From positions 1 through 64,000 of the forward strand of contig JANRIL010000010.1 in the NCBI GenBank assembly GCA_033764955.1: DNA of 64,000 nucleotides, given 5' to 3'. Positions 4,562-18,629 of the stretch are shown piece by piece. Below the pieces are notes generated by a model. That model was not told where the DNA came from, ran no database searches, and saw only the letters and a program-made list of their open reading frames with translations. Within the stretch, counting starts at the first letter, position 1, and each line of letters begins with the position of its first letter. A program made the translations under genes and the position numbers. The DNA comes from Cyanobacteriota bacterium. GTDB taxonomy: Bacteria; Cyanobacteriota; Cyanobacteriia; Thermostichales; Thermostichaceae.

Positions 4562-5746
4562 TTAGGAATACTGAGTGATGGGGGGAAGTTCCTGATTCAA
4601 AACCCAGTTGCCAATATCTCGGTACTTATAATCAATGGGATCATGAATCGTAAAGGTTCGCAGATCTCGCCAGTAGCGATCGAAGCCATAATGACGAGCC
4701 GTGGCTCGGCTACCGGTCAGTTCAAAAATGCGGTTAACGATGTCCAACCCTATACGAGTAGCTACAGATTTAGCAGCAAAAACGGCAACAGCAACCTCTC
4801 CCCGTTCGGCAAAGGTCAGATCGGTTTCTTTATCCCAGGCAGACTGGGCGGCGATAGTGGTGCGATCTGCTAAGGCTATGGCAGACTGAAGTCCTGCCCA
4901 GAGTTCCCCATAATGCTTCTGAATAAAGGGATCTTGAGTGGCAGAGGCTACGCCTGATGTTATCCAAGGCTTAGTTTGGGTGCGGGTATAGTGGAGGGCT
5001 GCTCGCAAAGCTCCTTCGGCAATCCCTAAATAAACATAAGTCTTAGTCAGTTGGGCAATAATGCCCAAAAAGGTGGCAAAAGCATGGGTAGGGGGCTGCG
5101 GATAACCCAAAATTTCCTCCGGGTTGACCAGCACTTGTTGAAATTGAACACTATTACTGGCTGTGCGGCGTTGTCCGATATTGTCCCAATCCTCCTCAAA
5201 ATGGATCCCTTCTCGATTTTTGGGTAACACTACCAGCCAGGGAGCTTCTACACCGGGTTGGATCGCTGAGAAAACCCGCTGATCCGCAACCGGAACCCCC
5301 GTCCCAAACCCTTTTATCCCATTCAGACGAAAAGAGTTGCCATCAGGAGTGAGGAACAGGCGAGCGTCTCGCATATTGATGGAGTTTCCCCAAAACCACT
5401 GGTGAGTAACAGTTCCTTGATAGTAATAATCTCTTTGATTTGAGGTTCCACTCACATGAGCCAGAGTGGTTAGCCCCAGATGGTTGCTGTAAAGTTGTCC
5501 AATAGAACCATCCGCAGTCGAGAGTTCCTGAATAACTCGCATGGCGGTCAAGAGAGATTCTCCTGCCCCCCCGTAGCCTTGCGGAATGTTCAGGGACAAC
5601 AAGCCAGATTGGCGGAGTAGCCCAACCTCATGCCAAGGCAAGCCTGCCTGCCAATCCCGTTCTACGGCATCATTGACCAGATCTTGCGCAACCTGAGCCG
5701 CAATTTTTTTATAGTCGGGTTTGCTAAGAGTTTCTAAAAGGGTCAT
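4562..5746 (-). CDS. Acyl-CoA dehydrogenase-family flavin monooxygenase (DszC/SfnB-like sulfur-acquisition oxidoreductase)
   Basis: IPQGYGGAG, LNGIKGFGTG, DWDNIGQRRTAS, FDRYWRDLRTFTIHDP; last gene of ssu operon. Confidence 0.85.
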   Translation of the reverse strand: MTLLETLSKPDYKKIAAQVAQDLVNDAVERDWQAGLPWHEVGLLRQSGLLSLNIPQGYGGAGESLLTAMRVIQELSTADGSIGQLYSNHLGLTTLAHVSGTSNQRDYYYQGTVTHQWFWGNSINMRDARLFLTPDGNSFRLNGIKGFGTGVPVADQRVFSAIQPGVEAPWLVVLPKNREGIHFEEDWDNIGQRRTASNSVQFQQVLVNPEEILGYPQPPTHAFATFLGIIAQLTKTYVYLGIAEGALRAALHYTRTQTKPWITSGVASATQDPFIQKHYGELWAGLQSAIALADRTTIAAQSAWDKETDLTFAERGEVAVAVFAAKSVATRIGLDIVNRIFELTGSRATARHYGFDRYWRDLRTFTIHDPIDYKYRDIGNWVLNQELPPITQYS

Positions 5747-5882
5747 GATAATTTCTCCTAGAAAACAATGGGATAGGGAGTAGGGGAAAAGTGAAAGCCG
5801 ACAGGGGAGGATCTGAGACCCTAAGTAGGGATCCCCATCGGTGGATGAATCGCGTGAGGAAAATTATGATTACCCAGTTTTG

Positions 5883-6641
5883 TCAAACTGGCATCAGGTG
5901 GAAGTTGGAAGTCGGTAGGGAAAGATCGAGTTGGTCAAGCAAATGCTCTTTCCACGCTTGCAAGATGGGATCCGTTCGCCGCCGAGGGTAGGGCAAATCT
6001 AAGATAAATTCTTGATGAATCCGACCAGGGTGGGGATGCATAATCACAATCCGATCACTCATGATCAAGGCTTCCTCTATATCATGGGTGACGAGGATCA
6101 GGGTAGGACGGTCATACTGCCAGATTTGCAGGAGGTGCTCCTGTAGCTTCATACGGGTCAAGGCATCCAAAGCACTGAAGGGTTCGTCCAGCAGAAGGAT
6201 TTCTGGCTTGGTGACAAGGGCACGGGCAATGGCTACCCGTTGAGCCATTCCTCCCGATAGTTGATGGGGTAGATGCTGGGCAAACGGCAATAAACCCACT
6301 TTGATCAAGGTAGTCTGGGTGATTTGGTTGCGTTGGGATCCGGATAGGTGGTGGATCCCGAACTGAACGTTATCCCAGACGGTTAGCCAAGGCATGAGAC
6401 GGGGATCCTGAAAAATGAGTCCCACGTTGGGATGGGGAGACACAATAGGCTGATCGTTAAAGAGTACCTCTCCGTTAGAGGGAGATTCCAGTCCTGCCAT
6501 GATGCGGAGTAGAGTACTCTTACCACAACCACTGGATCCCACCAAACTAATTCTTTCTCCCGGCTGAATGGTAAGGTCGATGTCAGTTAAAGCGGTAAAT
6601 CCGTTGGCAAATTGTTTGCTGACCTGAGTTAGGTTGAGCAT
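5883..6641 (-). CDS. ssuB: Aliphatic sulfonate ABC transporter ATP-binding protein
   Basis: GSSGCGKST, FQDPRLMPW, LSGGMAQR, LLLDEPF; start placed at ATG 6641 directly after permease stop. Confidence 0.85.
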   Translation of the reverse strand: MLNLTQVSKQFANGFTALTDIDLTIQPGERISLVGSSGCGKSTLLRIMAGLESPSNGEVLFNDQPIVSPHPNVGLIFQDPRLMPWLTVWDNVQFGIHHLSGSQRNQITQTTLIKVGLLPFAQHLPHQLSGGMAQRVAIARALVTKPEILLLDEPFSALDALTRMKLQEHLLQIWQYDRPTLILVTHDIEEALIMSDRIVIMHPHPGRIHQEFILDLPYPRRRTDPILQAWKEHLLDQLDLSLPTSNFHLMPV

Positions 6642-6642
6642 A

Positions 6643-7479
6643 TTAACCTCGTGCCACATAGGCATCTTGCCAGTACAGTAGGCGGTGGGATCCCGCCGCA
6701 ATTAGGGCGTCAGTGGCTTTCCCGAAAATGGCAAAGAGCAAAATACTGGCAATCGTCAGATCTGCCCGTCCGGTCGTTTGCCCATCAACCAAGAGATACC
6801 CCAATCCTTGACTTGCCCCCATCAGCTCAGCGGCCACCACAAACATCCACCCCAACCCCAATCCTCCTCGTAACCCAACCATGTAGGCGGGTAAGGTAGC
6901 AGGGAAAAACACCCGTATCATCAACTGGTAAGGCTTGAGGCGGTAAATGCGTCCTACCTCGACTAGTTTGCGATCGACAGTTTGAATGCCACTAACCAGG
7001 TTGAGATAGACCGGAAAGAACACCCCAACAGCAATCAGCACAACCTTAGAGGTTTCGTAGATCCCCATCCACAAGATAAAGAGGGGAACCCATGCTAGGG
7101 AAGGAATGCTACGTAAAGCTTGCAGCAAAGGATCCAGCAGTTGAAACAACCATCGGGAGTAGCCTGTCAGTACCCCTAATCCGGTGGCAGCAGCGGATCC
7201 CAAAACAAACCCAATAGCAACCCGTTGCAGGGTAATGCCGATATGTCCCCAGATTTCTCCAGTTTGGGTCAAACCCTGCAGAGTGGACAAAACAGCGGAG
7301 GGGGTAGGCAGCAGGTTGCGTGGGAAAAACCCCACTTGCCCTAGAGTCTGCCAAATAACCAGTAACACAATCGGTACAATCCACCCACGCCACCACGTTC
7401 GCTGCCAAATAGTTACCCGTGCAGAAGAAAGAAGGGGAGAGTCTGCTTCTACGGGGAGATCATGGATCCCTGGAGACAT
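6643..7479 (-). CDS. ssuC: Aliphatic sulfonate ABC transporter permease
   Basis: LRSIPSLAWVPLFILWMGI, WMFVVAAELMGASQGLG. Confidence 0.85.
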   Translation of the reverse strand: MSPGIHDLPVEADSPLLSSARVTIWQRTWWRGWIVPIVLLVIWQTLGQVGFFPRNLLPTPSAVLSTLQGLTQTGEIWGHIGITLQRVAIGFVLGSAAATGLGVLTGYSRWLFQLLDPLLQALRSIPSLAWVPLFILWMGIYETSKVVLIAVGVFFPVYLNLVSGIQTVDRKLVEVGRIYRLKPYQLMIRVFFPATLPAYMVGLRGGLGLGWMFVVAAELMGASQGLGYLLVDGQTTGRADLTIASILLFAIFGKATDALIAAGSHRLLYWQDAYVARG

Positions 7480-7483
7480 AGCC

Positions 7484-8485
7484 TTACGCCTTCGCTATTT
7501 GTTTAACGTATTGGTCATCAATCAGAGCATTAATGGTCTGCGGCACATCTATGGAGGCGTTGACGACTCCTGATTTTTTCAGAACATCAGCAGCAGCACT
7601 GATCACACTCTTTTGAGCCTCCCCAATCAGTGAGCTAGAGAGATTGGTGCGTTCTAGTTGCTTAGCGGCTACGGCATCGGTCAGCTTGGCATTCTGGGCT
7701 AAAATTGCTTGCAACTCTGCCGGATTGGTGAGCGCCCATTGACGCCCTTTTTCATAAACCTGCAAGACCCGATTTACATAGTCAGGATGCTCTTGGGCAA
7801 AAGCTTCCCGCACGTTCAAAACCCCATAACTGTTAAAGCTAGGATTGCGATAAAAAAGCCGGGATCCCCGTTCTAGTTCGGTTTGAGCCATCATCGGATC
7901 CAGCCCTGCCCAGGCATCCACATCACCTTTTTCGAGAGCAGCTTTACCATCGGCGTGCTGTAGCAAGACCAATTCCAGATCTTTATCCGACAGGCCAACT
8001 TGATCAAGAGCACGCACTAAGAAAATGAACGGATCGGTTCCTTTGGTTACAGCAATCTTTTTCCCCTTCAGCTCTTCAATTTTCTGAATGGGGGAGTTTT
8101 TGTCCACAACCAAGGCAGTCCATTCCGGTTGGGAATAGACATAGATGGACTTGATGGGATTGCCGTTGGCTCTCGCAATGAATGCCGCTGCTCCGGCGGT
8201 GGAGCCAAAATCGATACTACGAGCGTTGAGGAACTCAAGCGCCTTATTGCTACCCGCACTCTGCACCCATTCCACCTGGATCCCCTCGCTAGCTAGATCC
8301 GCCTCCAGCCAACCCTTTTCTTTGAGCACCAGACTGACGGGGTTGTAGTAGGCAAAATCCAGTCGAATGGAGGTGGGTTTCTTGGTTTGGGCCTGTAGCT
8401 TTCCGGCAGCGGACAAGGCAAGAGATCCCGCCACACCATAACCAGCCCACTTCAAAAGTATGCGACGGCCTATTGTATACGTCAT
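7484..8485 (-). CDS. ssuA: Aliphatic sulfonate ABC transporter substrate-binding protein
   Basis: RLDFAYYNP, SAGSNKALEFL, VDAWAGLDP; twin-arginine-like signal (GRRILLK). Confidence 0.85.
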   Translation of the reverse strand: MTYTIGRRILLKWAGYGVAGSLALSAAGKLQAQTKKPTSIRLDFAYYNPVSLVLKEKGWLEADLASEGIQVEWVQSAGSNKALEFLNARSIDFGSTAGAAAFIARANGNPIKSIYVYSQPEWTALVVDKNSPIQKIEELKGKKIAVTKGTDPFIFLVRALDQVGLSDKDLELVLLQHADGKAALEKGDVDAWAGLDPMMAQTELERGSRLFYRNPSFNSYGVLNVREAFAQEHPDYVNRVLQVYEKGRQWALTNPAELQAILAQNAKLTDAVAAKQLERTNLSSSLIGEAQKSVISAAADVLKKSGVVNASIDVPQTINALIDDQYVKQIAKA

Positions 8486-8634
8486 AGCTCCTCTGAGCAG
8501 TAATAAGCAGTGGTTGAAGAATTCTTAAGCTAGGCATCCAACCGTTTAGGCAAGGGATGCACAGGGGTAAATAGGAGAGAGCAGGATGGCATCTTCCGAA
8601 CGTGAGATCCAACAACCTAGTCCCTTGAGCGACT

Positions 8635-8673
8635 AATCTCCGATAACTCTATCGGTTTAGTGGTATTCTACGA
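8635..8673 (-). promoter_or_regulatory. Putative sulfur-regulon operator immediately downstream of a TAGAAT -10 element of ssuA
   Basis: AATCTCCGATAACTCTATCGGTTTAGTGGTATT, 24/33 identical to 12609-12641. Confidence 0.55.
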
Positions 8674-8720
8674 AGAATTTACCACAAATGCATTTGCATC
8701 GCAAGAGATTTAGGATTCAA

Positions 8721-9311
8721 CTAGCTTCGGCATGTAAACGAATGAACTAGCCTTGGAGAGAGAGCAATTCGTTTGCGAGCACTACGGCGAATTTGACCTT
8801 CCTGCTCTAACCTCTGCAACAGGCGGGTGATGGTGACTCGGGTGGATCCCAATGTCTCTGCCAACTCTTGGTGAGTAAAGGGGATCCCGATCCAGATTTC
8901 GGATCCAACCCGGTGACCAAATCGTTCTGCTAACCATGCCAGCAGGTGCAGGAGAGCCTGGAGGATCTTGCGCTCGTGCAGAATCTCCAGCATTTTTTGT
9001 GAGCTATCGATATGCCGCATTAAAGCGGCTGTGACATCTTGGTGGTTGACCAATTTGGCTTGCACTTCCGTTAGGCACTTCATTTCATAGATCCCTGATT
9101 GACTCAGACTGCTCCCCACCACATCAGAAGATCCCCAAAATCCCAAGGGAATTGGGATCCCATCCCGATTGATCGAGAGAGTGCGAACCACCCCCGCCTC
9201 GATCTGCCAGAGTCGATCTGATAACGGGGGCAAATAACTACCTTTGCCAAAAGTTTTTAAGCTGGGAGCTTCAGTCCCTAAAACAGGGGTGGGAAAGGCC
9301 AAAATGCTCAT
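8721..9311 (-). CDS. Crp/Fnr family transcriptional regulator (CysR-like)
   Basis: LWQIEAGVVRT, FTHQELAETLGSTRVTITRLL HTH; located inside sulfur cluster. Confidence 0.85.
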   Translation of the reverse strand: MSILAFPTPVLGTEAPSLKTFGKGSYLPPLSDRLWQIEAGVVRTLSINRDGIPIPLGFWGSSDVVGSSLSQSGIYEMKCLTEVQAKLVNHQDVTAALMRHIDSSQKMLEILHERKILQALLHLLAWLAERFGHRVGSEIWIGIPFTHQELAETLGSTRVTITRLLQRLEQEGQIRRSARKRIALSPRLVHSFTCRS

Positions 9312-9351
9312 GGTGGATTAGTAACAACGATCCAGTAGGACGGGGAATGGC

Positions 9352-10500
9352 TCAAGCTTTGAGAAGCCAATCGGAGATATTAAAGTCTGATTTCGCTAAT
9401 TGTTGACTTACCAAAAACGCTTTGGCTCCCTCTAGCAAGCTCAAACCTTCTGGGGAAAAAGCTTCAACAGGAAATTCGTCAACCGGATAGGAGTCCCTAA
9501 TTACCTCAACGGGAAACCCAACCGCTTTGGCATGAAACTGATAGTAAGCCTCAGGGGTTGCCTTGAGATCTTTAACCGACTCTTCAATGGCCTGATTCCA
9601 TAACTGAGGAAAATCAGGATGATCTTTCAAAAAAGCAACCGTTGCCACAGTAATACTGGTGCCACGCAGGGGAGGATGATCGGCAGCTTGATCAATCACC
9701 GGAAACCCTTGAGAAATCAGGAGGGGACCAAACCCAACCGGGGCAGCATAGGCAGCAATATCCCCCCGTTCCAGTGCAGGTTGAGCATCTTTGCTGAGGA
9801 GAGGAACAATCGTTACCTTCTTGAGCAGATCAGATTCACTCAACAGGCCAATCAAATATCGGTGCATGTAGGATCCCAGTTGAGTGGCAACCGTTTGTCC
9901 AGCCAATTGATCAAGGGTAGTGGGATCCCCCTTTTGTCCGACCAGCCAGACATTCATACCCACATGAGTTTGACGAATAGCCCGCGTATCGATACCGGCT
10001 GCCTTGGCAACAATCGCGGGAGTATCCCCGTAGGTTCCAATATCTAGTGCCCCTGCTGAAAGCGCTTCATTTAAGTTAGGGCCATTAGGAAAAGGGAAAA
10101 CCTCTACCTCTGAAAATCCTGTCTCTTGCAGCATAGAGGTGAGGATCCCTTTCTGCAATGCCCATCCATCCGGTCCAACGGGAGTTTTACCGGCGGCACT
10201 AATAAACCCGTAGCGCAGAACGGTATTGGACTGAGCCGTGGCTACTTTGTTTAAAGAACCAAAGTCAGGCAGCCCAGATAAGAAGGCAATTAAGCCGTAC
10301 ATGGCCAAAACAACAAGTGATTGAGCCAGTGATTTGTGTAGAAAAGGTAAGCGGGATGAACGTAGTTTTGGCTTGTGGGAAGAATCGGCAAAGATCCTCT
10401 CCAAGATGATTTTTGGCATACGCAATAAACCTCCTAGTTCAATCTCAGGTAGTGTCGGGTAGGTAAGTTTTTGAGAATTTGCAATTGGGGTTCGAAACAA
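9352..10500 (-). CDS. Second sulfonate-type (SsuA/TauA-like) ABC substrate-binding protein; true start probably later
   Basis: FPNGPNLNEAL, DIGTYGDTP, GSYMHRYL. Confidence 0.8.
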   Translation of the reverse strand: MFRTPIANSQKLTYPTLPEIELGGLLRMPKIILERIFADSSHKPKLRSSRLPFLHKSLAQSLVVLAMYGLIAFLSGLPDFGSLNKVATAQSNTVLRYGFISAAGKTPVGPDGWALQKGILTSMLQETGFSEVEVFPFPNGPNLNEALSAGALDIGTYGDTPAIVAKAAGIDTRAIRQTHVGMNVWLVGQKGDPTTLDQLAGQTVATQLGSYMHRYLIGLLSESDLLKKVTIVPLLSKDAQPALERGDIAAYAAPVGFGPLLISQGFPVIDQAADHPPLRGTSITVATVAFLKDHPDFPQLWNQAIEESVKDLKATPEAYYQFHAKAVGFPVEVIRDSYPVDEFPVEAFSPEGLSLLEGAKAFLVSQQLAKSDFNISDWLLKA

Positions 10501-10562
10501 AAGCGATCAGGCTGGGCAAACCGCCAGCCCTAAGCAATAGGGAGAGGTAAGCCTATCCGTAG

Positions 10563-10910
10563 TTAGGTCAGGCTCGCAGCTTTTAAGACTCGAAACGTGG
10601 CATCCTGCTGAGCACCCGATTTTTGGTTTCTTCCCCAGCCCACCTGCTGTCGATAGCTGCCTAAAAGCCCTTTGGCAACTAATTCTCTTTCCAGCTCATC
10701 AGGACTGATATCCACTAACGGCTCCACTTGAGGAGCGACATAAAGTGCATCAGCAGGACAATAGACTTCACACATGAAGCAGGTTTGGCAATCGCTCTGT
10801 CGAGCAATGTGGGGGATCCCGGATTGTCTGGCATCAAAAACATTTGTGGGGCATACCTGCACACAGATATTACAGCCAATACAACGGTTTGCACTGACGA
10901 GTTCAATCAC
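10563..10910 (-). CDS. 2[4Fe-4S] ferredoxin (AprB-like)
   Basis: CIGCNICVQVCP and CQTCFMCEVYCP; GTG start overlaps upstream TGA (GTGA). Confidence 0.9.
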   Translation of the reverse strand: MIELVSANRCIGCNICVQVCPTNVFDARQSGIPHIARQSDCQTCFMCEVYCPADALYVAPQVEPLVDISPDELERELVAKGLLGSYRQQVGWGRNQKSGAQQDATFRVLKAASLT

Positions 10911-12538
10911 AGAGCCTCCAGAGAATTGGCCAACTGGGTTTCCGGTTTGATCCACAGGTGATCCAGCCCTCCACTTAGCAAACGGTGCTGTTGGCTGGGA
11001 TCCTGCTCAGGGTAATCAAGGTGCTTGTGCATACCGCGACTTTCAGTGCGCTGCAAAGCACTGGCATACATCCAACGAGCTGTAGCTATCATCGCGGCCA
11101 CCTCCCGCCCCCGCCCTAAAGCAGTGGGATCAGGATTGAAGCCGTTGCGAACCTGCTGCCACAGGCTATTCAACCGTGAGAGGGAGGCAGTCAGACCCGA
11201 TTGAGTTCGAAAGTAATTGTAGTCGTAGGGAAAAACTTCTGCTTGCACCGCCTTTATCAATTCCTCCACTTGCAGATCCCGATCAATATCCTGATGGGGG
11301 CGAAGGGCGGCTCCCCCAATTGACTCAACCGCTCCATCTGGGATCCCTCTGGCTAGCGCGTAACAAGCTGCCGCCTGCCCAGCCCACTGCCCAGAGGACA
11401 TGGCCCAAGCTGCGTTATGGCTTCCTCCACCTGTAAAGCCACCACAGATGAGTTCGCGGGTGGCGGCATCTCCGGCAGCGTAGAGACCGGGGACTGAGGT
11501 TGCACACCCCTCATCCACAATGCGGATCCCTCCTGTACCCCGTACCGTTCCCTCCAACCGGAGCGTCACAGGAAAGCGCTGCCTAAATGGATCAATACCC
11601 AAGCGATCAAAAGGTAAAAAGAAATTCGGCTGAGCAGCTCGCATTGAGACTTGCAACTCAGGAGAAGCTTTATCCAACTGTGCGTAGACTGGCTGAGTCA
11701 GAAGAGTTGTGGCAATCATCGAGCGACCCCGCTGGGATCCTGCCCCTTCAATCACTCTGCCATCTTCGTAGGTGAAAGTAGCCCAGTTATAAAAAAGGGT
11801 TTTGGTGACCGAGGCAAAAGCTGGGGCAATGGCGTAGGCATTGGAGAACTCCATCCCTGACATCTCACCCCCCGCCTCTGCTGCCAGCAAATAACCATCC
11901 CCCGTTAAGACGTTACAGCCTAAGGCTTTGCTCAAAAACGCACAGCCCCCTGTAGCGATAACCACTGCACCTGAGCGAACTTGCCATCGGTGACCGGACT
12001 GACGCTGGATCCCGGCAGCCCCCACTACGGCTCCGCTTGCATCCACTATTAATTCCAGGGCTGGACTTTGATCCAAAATTGTGACTCCGGCTTTCTGAAT
12101 ACGTCGGCGCATTAGGCGCATGTACTCAGGTCCTTGCAAACTTTTACGGTAGGGTTGTGCGGCTTCATCCAAGGGGAAGGGATAGCCCCAGTCAGCAAGT
12201 TGGTTCATGGTGTCGTAGGTTTGATCCAGGACTCGCCCCATCCATCCCCGATCCGCTAACAAGCCCCCCATTTTCTCACGGCTAGCCATGGCCGCCTCCC
12301 TCGCTTCGCGGTGGGGAGCTACATACCAAACTCCTGTTCCTCCCGAAGCGGTGGCACCGCTACTACCACAGTACCCTTTGTCAACCAAGACAACAGTTGC
12401 CCCACCCACAGCGGCTCTCCAACCAGCCCAGGTTCCGGCTGGGCCACCCCCCAAAACCAAGACATCAGCTTTCAGTTCCAATACCTCTGAGGCTCCCCCC
12501 AAGGGAGGAGAGTGTTTAGCTCGCATCATGAAACCCAT
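10907..12538 (-). CDS. FAD-dependent oxidoreductase, succinate dehydrogenase/fumarate reductase/APS reductase flavoprotein superfamily
   Basis: VLVLGGGPAG, VVIATGG, TGDGY, GLYAAGD, RTESRGMH. Confidence 0.88.
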   Translation of the reverse strand: MGFMMRAKHSPPLGGASEVLELKADVLVLGGGPAGTWAGWRAAVGGATVVLVDKGYCGSSGATASGGTGVWYVAPHREAREAAMASREKMGGLLADRGWMGRVLDQTYDTMNQLADWGYPFPLDEAAQPYRKSLQGPEYMRLMRRRIQKAGVTILDQSPALELIVDASGAVVGAAGIQRQSGHRWQVRSGAVVIATGGCAFLSKALGCNVLTGDGYLLAAEAGGEMSGMEFSNAYAIAPAFASVTKTLFYNWATFTYEDGRVIEGAGSQRGRSMIATTLLTQPVYAQLDKASPELQVSMRAAQPNFFLPFDRLGIDPFRQRFPVTLRLEGTVRGTGGIRIVDEGCATSVPGLYAAGDAATRELICGGFTGGGSHNAAWAMSSGQWAGQAAACYALARGIPDGAVESIGGAALRPHQDIDRDLQVEELIKAVQAEVFPYDYNYFRTQSGLTASLSRLNSLWQQVRNGFNPDPTALGRGREVAAMIATARWMYASALQRTESRGMHKHLDYPEQDPSQQHRLLSGGLDHLWIKPETQLANSLEAL

Positions 12539-12608: not shown

Positions 12609-12681
12609 AATCTACGAAAATCCGATTGGATTACTGGTGTTAATCAATCCTGATTTTATCAGCTTCTCATTCGGAATGCAA
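12609..12681 (-). promoter_or_regulatory. Sigma70-type promoter (TTGCAT-N17-TAAAAT) with downstream copy of the putative sulfur operator
   Basis: Minus strand 12681-12653 reads TTGCAT TCCGAATGAGAAGCTGA TAAAAT; motif AATCTACGAAAATCCGATTGGATTACTGGTGTT at 12609-12641. Confidence 0.55.
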
Positions 12682-12790: not shown

Positions 12791-14707
12791 CTAAGGAGTG
12801 AGGCTTTCATTCGTGGTGAAGGTATCTAAGATCAGCCAGTTAGCGGCGATCCCATCGTTAGCTCCGGCTTCCAGAAGCGTTGCAAAGCGGCCATCGATCA
12901 CAACCAAAGCTGATGGCCCCAGCACGGTAGCTCCGTTGGAGGTGATTTCAATGGCGGCTTCTCGCTCTAGCCCAAAGGAAACGGTATCAGCATGTTGATA
13001 GACCACACTCACCTGCCGCCCATAGCGGTAGTCATAAAAGGTACGGGGTTCAAAACTGGCTCCGGGTACTAGTCCTAAGCCCGCTTCTACAAAGGGATAA
13101 CTGGCCAGATAGGCTGGACTAGCCTGATCTTCTTTAGCAATCGTGTCATCGGCGGGAGCGGCTTCGGAGGTCATCCAACTTCCCACGGTAGCGGCGGCAG
13201 CATTATCAAATAACAGAACCGTGCCTGCCTGGTTAAGTTGATCGAGGTTGAGACTAGCCAATTCGTCCACTAGATCGGCGGCTAGAGGCTGATCCTCTCC
13301 CGTGATTAGAACGGCTCCTGCTCGACTTAGGCGGGAAGACAAGAGAGCCATATCCGTACGACTGCTGAGAACAGCCGTTTTGACTTCCAAGCCCGCCCCC
13401 CGTAGAGCTTTGGCAATCAACAGAACCTCTTCGTTGATTAGGCGGCTTTCTCCCAAGCTGATCACATAGGTCGTTTTATCGGTAGCCAGCGCCAGATTTT
13501 TGAAACGTTCCAGAACACTGCCAGGAGCAAAGGCATCCCCAATCGGGATCCGCACTTCCGCCCGACCATAATCCAACAGATCTCCGGCAATCAGCACAGG
13601 CGCGGATCCCTGGGGGCGGGTGAGAAAATCAAAATTCCGACCACTCAAATCGGGCACACTGCCATCCACACTGCCGTTGAAGCTGGGGCGTTGAGACTCC
13701 AAGTCATAGCCATATCCCCCTTCTGGCAGGATGTGTAACCCGACATTGCGAATTGATAAGGAGGCACGGGATCCCCGATATTGGGCTGAGGCTGCCGATC
13801 CATAGGTCTCTTGATCGATGATGAAGGCGCTGGTGTATCCCTTGGTTTCGGTAATCAAGGTCTCATCCTCAATCAATACCCCAGTGCGCCAATCCGGACC
13901 CAGACCAATCTTGGCAAGGGGGGCACGCTGCACCGCTTGCAGGGAACGAATTAACCGTCCCCGTTGCAAAGCATGTTGTTCGATGATGGCGTTTTCTAGT
14001 CCAAAGGCCAACCCCCGTGTCACAGTTTGGATCCCACCATAGGCCAGATCCACGCTGCCAAACTCTAAGCCGTCCCAGGCAAAGTTATCCCCGATATAGC
14101 CGGCGATCATATAACGACTTTGGATGGCGGCTCCGGCGCTCCCTCCGCCAAAAGGTTTGGCTTGCTGATAGAGCGAAGAGAGGGCGACTTCGAGGGGAGT
14201 ATTGGCCATAATCTCCATCGCAATCACCTGATCTCCCCCCAGGGAATAGACACCATCCACACTGCTGTCATACTCCGCCACTTTGGCTAGATCCTGAGCA
14301 TCACTGCGAATCTGGATATCAGGAATGGTGGTGTTGCAGGTGAGTGGCGCTGAGATCAGACTTTCACAGACGGCTTGTAGTTGGTCGGCGCGGACTTGGG
14401 CATCTTCTAGATTGATCTGACGTTCCTCTTCGCTGATCGCGGTGGAGTTAGTGGAAAAAGTGGGCAGCAAAACCCGCAATTCCACCACGTCATCCGTATT
14501 GCGTTGAACCGCTTGCTCAGCAAATAACTCCAGGGTGGGGGTTTGATAGTCGGCTCCAATCGGGATCAGTTTGCGAACGGCATCAACGGATAATTCCACA
14601 GTCTCAGGGTTTGGATTGAGAGCCGTATGAGGGGATCCACTGCTACAGGCGGCGGCCAAAAGGCCAACCAGCCATACTGCCAATTGGGGGAAACGAGCAC
14701 CCATCAT
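12791..14707 (-). CDS. Cyanophycinase-like (peptidase S51) two-domain lipoprotein
   Basis: Lipobox LAAAC; GGDQ, GGSAGAAIQS, IIEQHALQRGR; second degenerate S51 domain. Confidence 0.75.
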   Translation of the reverse strand: MMGARFPQLAVWLVGLLAAACSSGSPHTALNPNPETVELSVDAVRKLIPIGADYQTPTLELFAEQAVQRNTDDVVELRVLLPTFSTNSTAISEEERQINLEDAQVRADQLQAVCESLISAPLTCNTTIPDIQIRSDAQDLAKVAEYDSSVDGVYSLGGDQVIAMEIMANTPLEVALSSLYQQAKPFGGGSAGAAIQSRYMIAGYIGDNFAWDGLEFGSVDLAYGGIQTVTRGLAFGLENAIIEQHALQRGRLIRSLQAVQRAPLAKIGLGPDWRTGVLIEDETLITETKGYTSAFIIDQETYGSAASAQYRGSRASLSIRNVGLHILPEGGYGYDLESQRPSFNGSVDGSVPDLSGRNFDFLTRPQGSAPVLIAGDLLDYGRAEVRIPIGDAFAPGSVLERFKNLALATDKTTYVISLGESRLINEEVLLIAKALRGAGLEVKTAVLSSRTDMALLSSRLSRAGAVLITGEDQPLAADLVDELASLNLDQLNQAGTVLLFDNAAAATVGSWMTSEAAPADDTIAKEDQASPAYLASYPFVEAGLGLVPGASFEPRTFYDYRYGRQVSVVYQHADTVSFGLEREAAIEITSNGATVLGPSALVVIDGRFATLLEAGANDGIAANWLILDTFTTNESLTP

Positions 14708-14983
14708 GATAGATCCTGGGGATAGGATACGGTTTTTCCATAAGCTGTGGAGTTGATGGAGGTAGATCCGTCAGTAGCCCAGCCCTAGCCACTATATCGG
14801 AGGTTACTCATCCCGCCGATTCACTTCCTAAAACTTTTAGAATTGACCAGCCGATTTCGGCCCCTTTCATCAAAAGTTTGCAACCTAGGAATCCCGGAAT
14901 ACTCATTTTGGATTCTAGGGGGATTGGTTCACCATGAGGGAAAATCGAGACACCCCCAGCGCCCCTTCAGGAAGGAGCCACCC

Positions 14984-16090
14984 ATGACCGCCGGACAGAT
15001 CCTCGATTGGGGGCAAAGCCTTCAGCAGGTTTACTGGCAGATGCGCCGTTTGCTCACCCACAGTCTGCGTGCCCAAGTGGCTTTGCTGGTGGGGAGTCTC
15101 TCCTTTTTGCCCAATATTGTTTTGATCATCGCTTCCTATTGGTTAGATCCTGTCCCGGTGCCGTTACCTTCCCCCTGGCTATGGGGAATTATCATCTGGA
15201 TCCCACTTTTGGGGCTGCTATCGGCGGGCATCGGCTATGGATCCTCCTATCTAATGTTTCGTCCCCTCACCCTCCTAGCCAAAGAGCTGAGCCAAATGGA
15301 GGTGTTTTTGGATCATCCAGAACAATGGAGTTTGACCCTCAAACCGAAGGATCCCGAAGAAGCCATGATTTTACGGGGGGCGTTTTCCCATCTCTTGCAA
15401 CGGGTGCAAACGGAGCAGGCACGACGCACCGCCTTTACCGCAACCCTCATGCATGATCTCAAAACCCCACTGATTGCCTTTGGGCATCTGTTGCACACGC
15501 TGCGGGATCAGGATATGCCCCGTCCACAGCAGCAAGATCTACTCAATCAACTGTTACAGGAAAATCAACGAATTTTAGAACTAGTACAAAAAATGGTTGA
15601 AGTTCACCGCTTTGAACAGGGGGAAATCAAACTGCACCGACAACCCTCTGATCTGGGGGCATTAGCACAGGCTTTGGTGAAGCGGATGCAACCCCTTGCC
15701 CAAGAGCGGCAACTACAGTTACAGGTGCGGGGAGAAGGGTGGGCCGAGGTGGATAGCTCCGAAATCAGCCGTGCCCTCTACAATCTTTTGGATAACGGCA
15801 TTCGCTATGCCCGCCATGCCCTAGAGGTAGAAGTGACCTCCCATCAGATCAAAGTTAGCGATGATGGCCCTGGATTACCGGCGGCTCTGGAGGAGCTAGC
15901 ACAACCCTATACTGCTCAGCCGATTGAGATCGCGGGCAAACGCTACACAGCGGGATCCGGTGGTCTAGGACTGTTTATTGCCCGCCGCATCCTGGAGGCG
16001 CATGGGGGATCCCTAGCGGTGGAGAAAACCGATGCCCAAGGAACCATCTTGGTGATGGTGATCAGTCCTGCGCCCGATGGGGCATCCTAA
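14984..16090 (+). CDS. Membrane sensor histidine kinase
   Basis: Two TM helices, H-box LMHDLKTPL, NLLDNG, DDGPG, GGLGL; AAGGAG SD before ATG 14984. Confidence 0.92.
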   Translation: MTAGQILDWGQSLQQVYWQMRRLLTHSLRAQVALLVGSLSFLPNIVLIIASYWLDPVPVPLPSPWLWGIIIWIPLLGLLSAGIGYGSSYLMFRPLTLLAKELSQMEVFLDHPEQWSLTLKPKDPEEAMILRGAFSHLLQRVQTEQARRTAFTATLMHDLKTPLIAFGHLLHTLRDQDMPRPQQQDLLNQLLQENQRILELVQKMVEVHRFEQGEIKLHRQPSDLGALAQALVKRMQPLAQERQLQLQVRGEGWAEVDSSEISRALYNLLDNGIRYARHALEVEVTSHQIKVSDDGPGLPAALEELAQPYTAQPIEIAGKRYTAGSGGLGLFIARRILEAHGGSLAVEKTDAQGTILVMVISPAPDGAS

Positions 16091-16115
16091 AATTAGGATC
16101 CTAATCCGCTTTTCT

Positions 16116-16712
16116 ATGCCTGATCTGCTCCAGGTTTTGATTGCCGATGATCATCCCCTCTTTCGGTTGGGGTTGAAATATGCCCTACAAGCCCAAGCAT
16201 TTGATGTGGTGGCTGAGGCAGAAACGGGATCCCAAGCTGTTCAGCGCTGCGCTGAACATACGATAGATGTGGCGATCCTAGACGTAAAAATGCCCGAGGG
16301 GGACGGGATTGTCACCTGTCAACAACTGATCCATCAACATCCCGCTCTGGTGGTAGTGTTGTTGACCACTTTTCAAGAACCCGCCCTCATTCAGGCGGCT
16401 CGTCAAGCTGGAGCCAAGGGATTTCTCTCCAAAGACACCGATCCGGCGCTCCTGTCCCGTACCATTCGCCAGATTGTGCAACAGCCTCAGCAGGATTGGT
16501 TGCCCACGATTCAAGCTCTTCCCCACCTCACCCCCCGCGAATTGACCGTGTTACGGCTGATGATGCAAGGTCTAGCGAACAAACAAATTGCCCGCCAACT
16601 GGGGATCAGCATCGAAACTGTCAAAGAATATGCTAGCGCCGCCTACCGAAAACTGGATGTCAATGACCGCGTCACAGCTATTTTTAAGGCTCAAGAACTA
16701 GGGATCCTCTAA
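16116..16712 (+). CDS. NarL/LuxR family response regulator
   Basis: IADDHP, LDVKMP, LTPRELTVL...GLANKQIA. Confidence 0.93.
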   Translation: MPDLLQVLIADDHPLFRLGLKYALQAQAFDVVAEAETGSQAVQRCAEHTIDVAILDVKMPEGDGIVTCQQLIHQHPALVVVLLTTFQEPALIQAARQAGAKGFLSKDTDPALLSRTIRQIVQQPQQDWLPTIQALPHLTPRELTVLRLMMQGLANKQIARQLGISIETVKEYASAAYRKLDVNDRVTAIFKAQELGIL

Positions 16713-16807
16713 TTTCACGTGTTCTTAAGTTGCTGAACAGAAAGGTAAAGAGTCCACACCAAACAGCCTACCCTTTTCCTTTCATTTGGTTAATTTATTT
16801 AGCTTAC

Positions 16808-17017
16808 TCGGCGGGAAGCCCCGCACCCTAACCGATAGGGTCGGTGTCGGGATGATAGCCAGGGTCAGCGTACTCCGCACAATTTGGACTAGCCGACCAA
16901 CTTTTGCTATGGTGTTTCCAAGTGGGGTTGGGCGTCGCCTCACTATAAAACGCGAAGTCCTGAAAAGGATGGAGAAGCCCACACCGTATGTTTGCATCGG
17001 TGATGGGAGTACGTCAC
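16808..17017 (+). mobile_element. Non-autonomous IS200/IS605-family element (PATE-like), lacking tnpA and tnpB
   Basis: Two related subterminal hairpins, each preceded by GAAG (GAAGCCCCGCACC..GGTGTCGGG; GAAGCCCACACCG..CGGTGATGGG); ends in GGGAGTACGTCAC; TTAC precedes the left end. Confidence 0.75.
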
Positions 17018-17019
17018 GG

Positions 17020-17454
17020 CTAAAGCTCCAAATCTTCCTCCGTTAATGCTTCCATTAACGCCTGAATGCCCGCTTGCGCCACCTCCACATCCTGTTCTCC
17101 AGTACCGGATCCCACCCCAATTGCTCCGATCACCTCCCCTGCCCAGACAATCGGCATCCCCCCTTTCAGGTTGGTTAACTGACCTTCGGTAACCAAACCC
17201 AGTTTCAGTTCCAGTTCGGCAGGGATCCCGCCACTCGCTACACGGGAGGAGGCCGCTGTCACCGCCTTTTGGGTGGAAGATAGCTGGCTGAGTAATTTTG
17301 CCCCATCCATACGGGCATAGGCCAGGAGGTGGCCAGCCCGATCCACTACGGCAATGCACTGGGGGATCCCTATCTGCGTGGCTTTGGTCATCGCCCCCTG
17401 CAAGACTATCAATGCCCCTTGACAGGACAACTCCCGCGTTTGACGAACATACAT
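17020..17454 (-). CDS. GlcG/HbpS family heme-binding protein
   Basis: IAVVDRAGHL, RMDGA, KAVTA, GGMPI, GAIGVGSG...QD. Confidence 0.88.
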   Translation of the reverse strand: MYVRQTRELSCQGALIVLQGAMTKATQIGIPQCIAVVDRAGHLLAYARMDGAKLLSQLSSTQKAVTAASSRVASGGIPAELELKLGLVTEGQLTNLKGGMPIVWAGEVIGAIGVGSGTGEQDVEVAQAGIQALMEALTEEDLEL

Positions 17455-17459
17455 AGGCT

Positions 17460-18629
17460 TTACTCCTCCATCTGGACAATGGCGGCGATCAGGTTACTGC
17501 CGGGGGATCCCTGGTGCTCAGCTCCCGCCGAAGCTAGGATCAGCGGATCCCCAACCACTGAGGCGACAATCGCATGGGCGACCGCCTTCGCCTGAATGCC
17601 AGCATAGCCCGCCAAAAAATCGCTGTGAATGGTGTGGCGGCGACCACGCACCTGGCTAACTGCATCAGCCCCACAGTTGATCAATACCTGGGTAATGCGA
17701 GCCTGTTGAGCCGTGGTCAGGGGGGGAGCAAGCCCAGCCGTAGTCAGTGCCTCATGGATCCCGGAGAGATCCAGTTGATCTTGCATTACTCCACTGCCAA
17801 TTTGGTAGCGGCTGACAGAAGTAGTGGAATTACCCAGCACCAAAACGCGGCAGGCGGATTGCTCCCCCCCGGCAGAAACCGATCCTTTGCGGGTGAAAAG
17901 AGTGGGATCCTGATTGATCACCGCCTGATGGATCTGACTGGCTTCCACCTCCTGCAACGCAACCGCAACTCCCAGAGCAGAAGCCGCTTTGCTAAAGGAG
18001 GAGGCTTGCGTCAGGTTGCGGCTAACTACGGATACGGAACGAGCCGCTGCATCGGCTAAACGATCCACGGTCATAGCTGGACACTTAATTTCTACACAAT
18101 GCACATCCCCCAACTCGGCAATCTCCGCCGCCGCTATCGCCGATTGCACCGCCGCCGCCACCAATTCCACCTGTAAAGGCGTGCCATATTCCTCCGGTAA
18201 AAGTGGGCGGGTTTGAGCAACCCCCACCGCGAGCCGCTTGGGAGGAGAGTCCGCGATGGGTCGCTGCACCCGTTTTTTTGTCCAGAGGGTGAGATGGGGG
18301 CTCATCATCCCACCACATAGCCCAATCATCATCATCGGGATCCGCTCAAACACGGCTTGGGGAGACAGGTTCAAGGCTTCCCCCAACAGCAGTTGTAGTG
18401 ATAAAGAGGCATACCCACGGGCGTAACCATCCCCCTCGGTTTGAGCCATGATGGCCACAATCTCCGCAGGGTTGAGTATGCCTAGCTGCATGAGATCCCG
18501 CACACCACTCGTATCCGCTGGGGAGGACATGGGCAGGCGAAACACCCCCACATCCCAGCACGGCTCAAAGGCTTCAGCAGTTGGCATGGATTCCCAGATG
18601 GTCAACGAATTCTGCTCGTATCCTCGCAT
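17460..18629 (-). CDS. Ring-opening amidohydrolase, cyanuric acid hydrolase (AtzD)/barbiturase family, divergent; possible start 18587
   Basis: SPADTSG, TEGDG, SPH, LPEEYG, IKCP, ASALG, SAG, VRGRRHT, AEHQG. Confidence 0.88.
   Translation of the reverse strand: MRGYEQNSLTIWESMPTAEAFEPCWDVGVFRLPMSSPADTSGVRDLMQLGILNPAEIVAIMAQTEGDGYARGYASLSLQLLLGEALNLSPQAVFERIPMMMIGLCGGMMSPHLTLWTKKRVQRPIADSPPKRLAVGVAQTRPLLPEEYGTPLQVELVAAAVQSAIAAAEIAELGDVHCVEIKCPAMTVDRLADAAARSVSVVSRNLTQASSFSKAASALGVAVALQEVEASQIHQAVINQDPTLFTRKGSVSAGGEQSACRVLVLGNSTTSVSRYQIGSGVMQDQLDLSGIHEALTTAGLAPPLTTAQQARITQVLINCGADAVSQVRGRRHTIHSDFLAGYAGIQAKAVAHAIVASVVGDPLILASAGAEHQGSPGSNLIAAIVQMEE

Follow-up and report, generated by a model that had tools for sequence, protein, structure and literature searches.

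A probable asfABC-type module joined to sulfonate-import and monooxygenase genes in a cyanobacterium of the family Thermostichaceae

The stretch of DNA analysed here (the window) comprises 64,000 nucleotides from a cyanobacterium of the Thermostichaceae (contig JANRIL010000010.1 of assembly GCA_033764955.1). Its minus strand carries at 4562–12529 a cluster of eight co-oriented open frames, three of which encode a flavoprotein, a ferredoxin and a substrate-binding protein. We are highly confident that this module is a member of the asf family, and the three genes are denoted asfA, asfB and asfC below. On balance, at somewhat better than even confidence, we read the whole as a sulfur-starvation cluster around an asfABC orthologue, with AsfAB as a redox accessory to SsuD. 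The module is already known and the finding is modest as a discovery; the copy described here is cyanobacterial and joined to a sulfonate importer and an MsuC-like monooxygenase.

Identity of the asf module

The asfRABC genes of Pseudomonas putida S-313 were reportedly described by Vermeij et al. in 1999. According to passages of a review (PMC4267179), they encode a LysR regulator and a binding protein together with a reductase/ferredoxin system, and aromatic desulfonation requires asf beyond ssu: asfA mutants of S-313 lose the use of aromatic sulfonates and keep that of aliphatic ones. The initial annotation knew of no characterised function for the flavoprotein–ferredoxin module. The primer sites, the identity to the pair of Cupriavidus metallidurans CH34 (both below) and the asf literature, as far as these passages go, rule out its description as uncharacterised.

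The published asfA marker primers asfAF1all and asfBtoA (supplement of PMC9694294) each match once in the 64 kb, in asfA and asfB respectively, with two mismatches each. The first site (11845–11863, minus strand) encodes the SGMEFS motif; the second (10765–10783, plus strand) encodes TCFMCE on the opposite strand; they face each other 1,099 bp apart. Since single matches arise by chance (with the two primers taken singly, 27 and 3 of 100 shuffled sequences contained any match), the weight rests on place, orientation and spacing. In CH34 the same primers match with 2 and 1 mismatches, 1,129 bp apart. Over 80 related loci, the pair matches with at most three mismatches in 31, with at most one in nine and with none in one; most Nostocales loci fail the asfBtoA match at the DNA level. 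The asfA homologue of Pseudorhodoferax aquiterrae (locus L037:10001–11584) matches both primers perfectly and contains one in-frame stop, possibly reflecting a pseudogene or a sequencing error.

AsfA is 63% identical over 535 aa to a CH34 protein, and AsfB is 51% identical to the CH34 ferredoxin; the overlapping stop and start and the motifs are common to both pairs. In the passages of the CH34 genome paper (PMC2864759), AsfA/AsfB are Rmet_4334/5, and six tauD tags are listed. The CH34 record itself is devoid of annotation, and the locus was matched to these genes by position: comparison of six TauD matches with the tags given in those passages, with interpolation from Rmet_4136 to Rmet_4409, places it at about Rmet_4339. 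It is the sole strong AsfA homologue on its replicon. The supplements of the paper, file 13 aside, gave no match for Rmet tags. The CH34 pair differs from ours in its neighbours: beside it are genes for a desaturase, an amidohydrolase-like protein and an ABC (ATP-binding cassette) transporter, and within 12 kb neither AsfC nor the MsuC-like protein has a close counterpart; in the CH34 stretch considered, no LysR gene lies directly beside asfA. Further AsfA relatives at 59–66% identity come from Variovorax, Polaromonas, Hydrogenophaga and Paraburkholderia, genera listed in passages of asfA surveys (PMC9694294; bioRxiv 10.1101/2021.06.22.449381).

The asf gene order, reductase, ferredoxin and substrate-binding protein, is present in the window, AsfC being an orthologue by position only. 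The order of the pair followed by its own binding protein had been noted earlier and is borne out. In common with S-313, the reductase, ferredoxin and binding protein stand together in a sulfur-linked setting, with the primer sites at their spacing and with ssu genes in the genome. The host here, however, is a cyanobacterium, a Crp-family gene and a palindromic box are found in place of a LysR-type asfR, and the module is joined to a second ssuACB set and an MsuC-like gene.

Putative asfA orthologues in cyanobacteria had reportedly been noted by Schmalenberger and Kertesz in 2007; the other asfA texts searched do not mention them. A literature search, with subscription journals outside its scope, found nothing on AsfA biochemistry or on cyanobacterial asfA.

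The AsfA flavoprotein and its ferredoxin partner

The asfA gene (10907–12529, minus strand) encodes a flavoprotein of 540 aa with the FrdA/AprA fold. Its best named relatives are cyanobacterial, with 69–73% identity. A search of 50%-identity clusters yielded 898 clusters at E 1e-30 or better, none of them named, and databases label AsfA as succinate dehydrogenase or FAD-binding protein (FAD, flavin adenine dinucleotide). The asfB gene (10563–10910, minus strand) encodes a 2[4Fe-4S] ferredoxin of 115 aa with a conserved C-terminal tail. Both of its CxxCxxCxxxCP motifs, conserved without change in all 26 aligned rows, agree with the earlier assignment, as does the GTGA coupling: the TGA stop of asfA overlaps the GTG start of asfB at 10910–10907. 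The pair is adjoined by the binding-protein gene and a cyanophycinase-like gene, not by membrane-anchor genes, again as noted initially.

AsfA lacks both the covalent-FAD histidine and the dicarboxylate-binding residues. The absence of the SHT motif, noticed initially, is general: AsfA has SSGATASGG where FrdA has SHTVAAEGG, and SH[TS]xxAxGG occurs in none of 233 relatives. Alignment with FrdA puts G58, Y232, E326 and G367 in the places of its covalent-FAD histidine and of the His/His/Arg residues of its dicarboxylate site (motifs FHPT, HY and HGANRL). The FHPT and HGxNRL (HGANRL) motifs are likewise found in 0 of the 233 relatives; SGMEFSxxY is present in all 233 and EGTVRGxGG in 231. The polar residues Y232, E326, R330, R358 and N372, situated near the substrate site of the superfamily, are invariant in 27 of 27 rows.

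The structure model of AsfA (mean predicted local distance difference test, pLDDT, 81.6) has the fold of FrdA, SdhA, AprA and NadB, including the capping domain. Comparison with FrdA gives Z 41.6 (root-mean-square deviation, rmsd, 3.0; 488 residues aligned), with 3'-phosphoadenosine 5'-phosphosulfate (PAPS) reductase (PDB 8A8O) Z 37.5 (rmsd 3.6; 506 aligned), with NadB also Z 37.5, and with AprA (1JNR) Z 32.0. In these comparisons the FAD loop free of His and the small 2[4Fe-4S] partner, predicted to bind, are shared with AprAB and PAPS reductase; AsfA differs from these enzymes and from FrdA, SdhA and NadB in the low identity (18–22%), the replaced substrate residues and the lack of membrane anchors, and misses the family cut-offs widely.

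The source names of many relatives, and the common fold, would suit a divergent succinate dehydrogenase/fumarate reductase, L-aspartate oxidase or adenosine 5'-phosphosulfate (APS) reductase. We regard such an identity as highly improbable. The Sdh/Frd/NadB/Apr family models score far below cut-off on AsfA (at best 118 of 718 bits; AprA model NF005331, 53 of 557), its identity to solved members of the superfamily is 15–24%, and the FHPT and HGANRL motifs are missing throughout the relatives. The source genome, moreover, encodes on another contig (C28) a regular SdhA-type protein that possesses the full set of motifs and is 23% identical to AsfA. An Sdh/Frd/NadB identity was rejected on the family-model scores, the replacement of the FrdA residues and the absence of the motifs in the 233 relatives. 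The earlier statements that the chemistry is not that of succinate, fumarate or aspartate and that the architecture is AprAB-like are upheld by the motif replacement and the fold comparison.

The predicted AsfA–AsfB complex scored 0.94, the best control 0.01; of 157 solved complexes, 116 attain the mark adopted for this score, as do 2 of 215 mismatched pairs. The runs share at least 98% of contacts, and the pLDDT of the partners is at least 89. In the prediction, the cluster-binding loop of AsfB (residues 18–21) faces the FAD loop of AsfA (Y53, S56), and the tail of AsfB rests on the capping domain. The high score may stem from likeness to solved AprAB, and so demonstrates likeness and not binding.

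The monooxygenase and ssu genes

The product of the gene at 4562–5746 (minus strand) is a class D flavin monooxygenase; it groups with MsuC, SfnB and DszC, is matched at full length and is nearest to MsuC. The best solved match is the methanesulfinate monooxygenase MsuC (6U76; 294 bits, E 1.6e-86), followed by DszC/TdsC at 258–265 bits. The protein is below the cut-offs of DszC (NF043015, 308 of 850 bits) and SfnB (TIGR04022, 296 of 431 bits); the model scan gave no MsuC model among its hits, and the cluster contains no dszA/dszB-type pair. The initial label was DszC-like; MsuC is the closer relative.

Between this gene and asfC, all on the minus strand, lie an ssuB-like ABC ATPase gene (5883–6641; NrtD, TauB and SsuB models at 213–226 bits, each below its cut-off), an ssuC-like ABC permease gene (6643–7479; top model SsuC, 192 bits, below the cut-off of 347), ssuA, encoding a binding protein of the aliphatic-sulfonate type (7484–8485; TIGR01728, 256.9 bits against a cut-off of 163.5), and a Crp-family regulator gene (8721–9311). 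AsfC (9352–10419) belongs to the SsuA superfamily and scores 100 bits, below the SsuA cut-off of 163.5.

The initial annotation had noted that the window contains no SsuD and no SsuE/MsuE flavin reductase. This is true of the contig of the window (C18), where no luciferase-like monooxygenase or FMN (flavin mononucleotide) reductase was found, and it fails genome-wide: elsewhere the source genome encodes SsuD (608 bits, cut-off 518) and two SsuE proteins (241 and 213 bits, cut-off 164). The arrangement on contig C1 is ssuA-ssuA-ssuD-ssuE-ssuC-ssuB, and the second ssuE is on contig C44. With these enzymes encoded, the monooxygenase does not require a reductase of its own.

This bears on the second option of the initial annotation, in which AsfAB would serve the adjacent MsuC-like monooxygenase as its dedicated flavin reductase. 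Class D monooxygenases require reduced flavin, and 25 of the 80 related loci have a close MsuC-like gene (56–65% identity) no farther than 10 kb from asfA. Nevertheless we consider this option unlikely: in addition to the two SsuE proteins, the monooxygenase stands behind a separate box (below), a close MsuC-like gene is seen in 0 of 28 non-cyanobacterial loci, and an MsuC-like gene of any kind occurs in just 11 of 17 AsfA-positive genomes, in six of them at 57% identity or more.

Contig C35 (2000–28500) of the same genome carries a large organosulfur island with four luciferase-like monooxygenases (NtaA-type above cut-off), a TauD-like gene, an acyl-CoA-dehydrogenase-like gene, a class II aldolase gene and several binding-protein genes. 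It also contains a second flavoprotein–ferredoxin pair, 50% identical to that of the window, which has 6 and 6 mismatches to the two primers.

Distribution and neighbourhood of asfA homologues

The gene neighbourhoods were compared in the best 80 of 106 confirmed asfA loci, of which 52 are cyanobacterial or group with the cyanobacterial ones. A ferredoxin gene is present in 77, the other three ending at a contig edge; AsfC-like proteins are encoded in 35, SsuD in 19 and TauD in 18, and an SfnB/MsuC-like gene is found in 29, at 56% identity or more in 25 of these. Sulfur genes (SsuD, TauD, MsuC-like) stand near asfA homologues in a part of the loci, in agreement with the organosulfur-scavenging role suggested initially. 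The conserved unit is asfAB(C): no Crp homologue was observed in the 80 loci, and the eight-gene order was not seen in them.

None of 40 sampled relatives of the source organism, 22 of them of the same family, yielded a close AsfA relative; across the phylum, 17 of 300 genomes did, each a member of one and the same family (17 of 37). SsuD is encoded in 16 of these 17 genomes, and the exception has only a 52% paralogue, so that SsuD accompanies close AsfA in 16 of 16; SsuE is found in 14 of 17. Six same-family genomes lacking the flavoprotein have SsuD, SsuE and an MsuC-like gene in one case each.

The quick tree of AsfA retained 63 of 112 rows, redundant cyanobacterial rows being dropped. A recent transfer from the Nostocales is not supported: the GC content of the cluster, 0.511, is near that of the genome, 0.515, and AsfA branches off first within the cyanobacterial group (support 92). 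Old inheritance with losses, or an old transfer, are possible origins. At least three further lineages of AsfA paralogues, with 47–52% identity and long branches, are present in cyanobacteria (L081:18021, L121, L124–L130, L096:3877–5469). In some Nostocales, a second close asfAB copy stands a few kb from the first (L045:555–1042 and 10001; L119/L123), and in Paenibacillus cellulositrophicus two AsfA-type pairs stand in tandem.

A palindromic box and candidate regulators

Motif discovery in 14 regions upstream of sulfur genes gave a palindrome scoring above shuffled controls. Two copies are situated in the cluster, one 83 bp 5' of asfA (12612–12639) and one 153 bp 5' of ssuA (8638–8665). The box is 28 bp long, has the half-site CTACGGTAA and is a candidate sulfur-regulon operator. 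A matrix trained on six sites outside the window was scanned over 3.8 million positions: the asfA box ranked 9th (21.4 bits) and the ssuA box 14th (17.1 bits). The real genome has 14 positions above 17 bits, against 2 and 2 in two shuffles; two or three of the 14 lack an evident sulfur gene. Held-out boxes precede the ssuA-ssuA-ssuD-ssuE operon as well as two genes whose products read as CysA and sulfite reductase (sir). The box being common to sulfate-uptake genes, sir, the ssu operon, asfA and ssuA, sulfur-starvation control of asfA and ssuA is likely, as judged from sequence. Probably there are two transcription units, asfA-asfB-asfC-crp and ssuA-ssuC-ssuB-msuC-like. Scans for sigma-70 promoters and terminators at the cluster gave results at or below chance, and three intergenic folds are unremarkable (z from 0 to –1.1).

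The box was sought, at 14 bits or more and at most 500 bp upstream, in the cyanobacterial asfA loci, two being left out for having too little upstream DNA. It was found in 36 of 50, compared with 0 of 50 inside-gene controls and 0 of 28 loci from other bacteria. A literature search on the box, with the same restriction on subscription journals, found nothing. Further boxes in the genome are at C48:23887, C45:169741, C13:4344, C42:139838, C1:22065 and C35:3203, 9154, 10019, 23663 and 24597. The genome's boxes stand before genes of sulfate-binding proteins, cysA, sulfite reductase, the ssu operon and organosulfur genes.

The Crp protein of the cluster and Rrf2 proteins are candidate binders of the box. 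The genome has two Rrf2 genes, neither of them among the 45 best box hits. The Crp protein, of the cyanobacterial CysR/PtrA-like group and the sole member of its group in the genome, is 41–45% identical to Crp proteins encoded beside cysE/cysA or phoU/porin genes. It differs from these in the quick tree of 38 rows, where it forms a long branch outside both the sulfur-linked and the phosphate-linked clade (support 98 each), and the PtrA model gives 75 of 300 bits. Among the cyanobacterial proteins of this group (L142–L170), one clade is encoded beside cysE/cysA with the box and the other beside phoU and a porin. A passage of PMC3590769 names CysR of S. elongatus as a CRP/FNR member.

Proposed working of the cluster and the catalytic alternative

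In the reading that we prefer, sulfate shortage would lead a regulator at the 28-bp boxes to switch on both units. AsfC and SsuA would hand organosulfur compounds to the single SsuBC transporter, and the MsuC-like enzyme would oxidise a more reduced sulfur compound, e.g. a sulfinate, to a sulfonate accepted by SsuD. The C–S bond would be cleaved by SsuD with SsuE, encoded on contig C1, by chemistry known for the family. The predicted heterodimer of AsfA and AsfB, AprAB-like and carrying FAD and [4Fe-4S] clusters, would feed desulfonation with low-potential electrons where the substrate is beyond SsuD/SsuE alone. In P. putida, the substrates needing asf are aromatic sulfonates according to the published genetics (passages of PMC4267179).

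A number of observations weigh against this. The family membership rests on the primers and CH34, not on the AsfA, AsfB and AsfC sequences of P. putida, and none of the relatives' source names retrieved is AsfA. No LysR-type asfR is found among the eight genes, the sole regulator being of the Crp family. The co-occurrence of SsuD with AsfA is an association and not a set of independent events, as the genomes are kin and mostly of one family. SsuE is present in the source genome and in most AsfA-positive genomes, which leaves the need for a second electron path unexplained. To our knowledge, the FrdA/AprA superfamily fold has no NAD(P)H-binding domain. The invariant polar residues near the substrate site fit an enzyme with its own substrate. 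Finally, in the abstract of Schmalenberger and Kertesz (2007), the tested genomes with asfA orthologues, cyanobacteria being listed, are said not to use arylsulfonates, except C. metallidurans. The substrate in this cyanobacterium may differ from aryl sulfonates.

Several of these points suit an alternative in which catalysis would fall to AsfAB: as an AprAB-like flavoenzyme, the pair would reduce or cleave an organosulfur compound delivered by AsfC. Cleavage of C–S or S–O bonds of an imported substrate by the pair was the first option of the initial annotation. The reaction would occur at the FAD, perhaps through a flavin–sulfur adduct as in APS reductase, with electrons from ferredoxin arriving through AsfB and SsuD acting before or after. 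We hold this possibility only tentatively, well below the accessory role. The FrdA/AprA fold with its capping domain is consistent with it, as are the replacement of the fumarate-binding residues by invariant polar ones, the near-universal SGMEFSxxY and EGTVRGxGG motifs, and a conserved pocket retained, with no NAD(P)H domain, in a genome that already has SsuE. The predicted AsfB cluster loop against the FAD loop resembles a wire to a catalytic flavin, although this may reflect likeness to AprAB. The partners of AsfAB differ by lineage (an amidohydrolase, TauD, NtaA-type proteins, tandem paralogues), and the second pair, on C35, is 50% identical. On the other hand, SsuD accompanies every close AsfA in 16 genomes, the AprA model falls far short of its cut-off, and passages of PMC4267179 have an electron transfer for oxygenolytic C–S cleavage that also needs ssu. 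Stated in full, and equally tentatively, AsfAB, which has for long been described as an electron shuttle, would be a catalytic third branch of the Frd/Apr superfamily with its own FAD site (Y232, E326, R330, R358), supplied in cyanobacteria with photosynthetic ferredoxin electrons and having a natural substrate other than an aryl sulfonate.

The asfA gene serves as a soil marker of aromatic sulfonate use, yet the available literature passages give only a proposed electron-transfer role; caution is due here, as asfA amplicons need not imply aryl-sulfonate use. This copy belongs to a cyanobacterial lineage whose sampled relatives were all negative, shares a promoter box with the genes of sulfate uptake and sulfite reductase and with ssuD, and offers testable residues plus a predicted AsfA–AsfB interface. 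If the catalytic reading is true, the compact, box-controlled cluster is a convenient place for finding the substrate of AsfAB.

Boundaries of the cluster and flanking genes

The initial annotation had counted seven or more co-oriented genes in 4562–12538. Eight genes were found; asfA starts at the ATG at 12529, as deposited, and not at 12538. The most likely start of asfC is the ATG at 10419, with an AGGAGG site ahead.

Directly upstream of asfA, at 12791–14707 on the minus strand, a 638-aa protein with a lipoprotein-like start is encoded; its cyanophycinase-like domain scores 111.6 bits against a cut-off of 126.6. The region 14843–18629 contains what we take to be a sensor kinase and a response regulator on the plus strand, followed by a presumably GlcG-like heme-binding gene on the minus strand. 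The minus strand of this region also encodes a 389-aa protein, which we take to be a ring-opening amidohydrolase of the cyanuric acid/barbiturase family.

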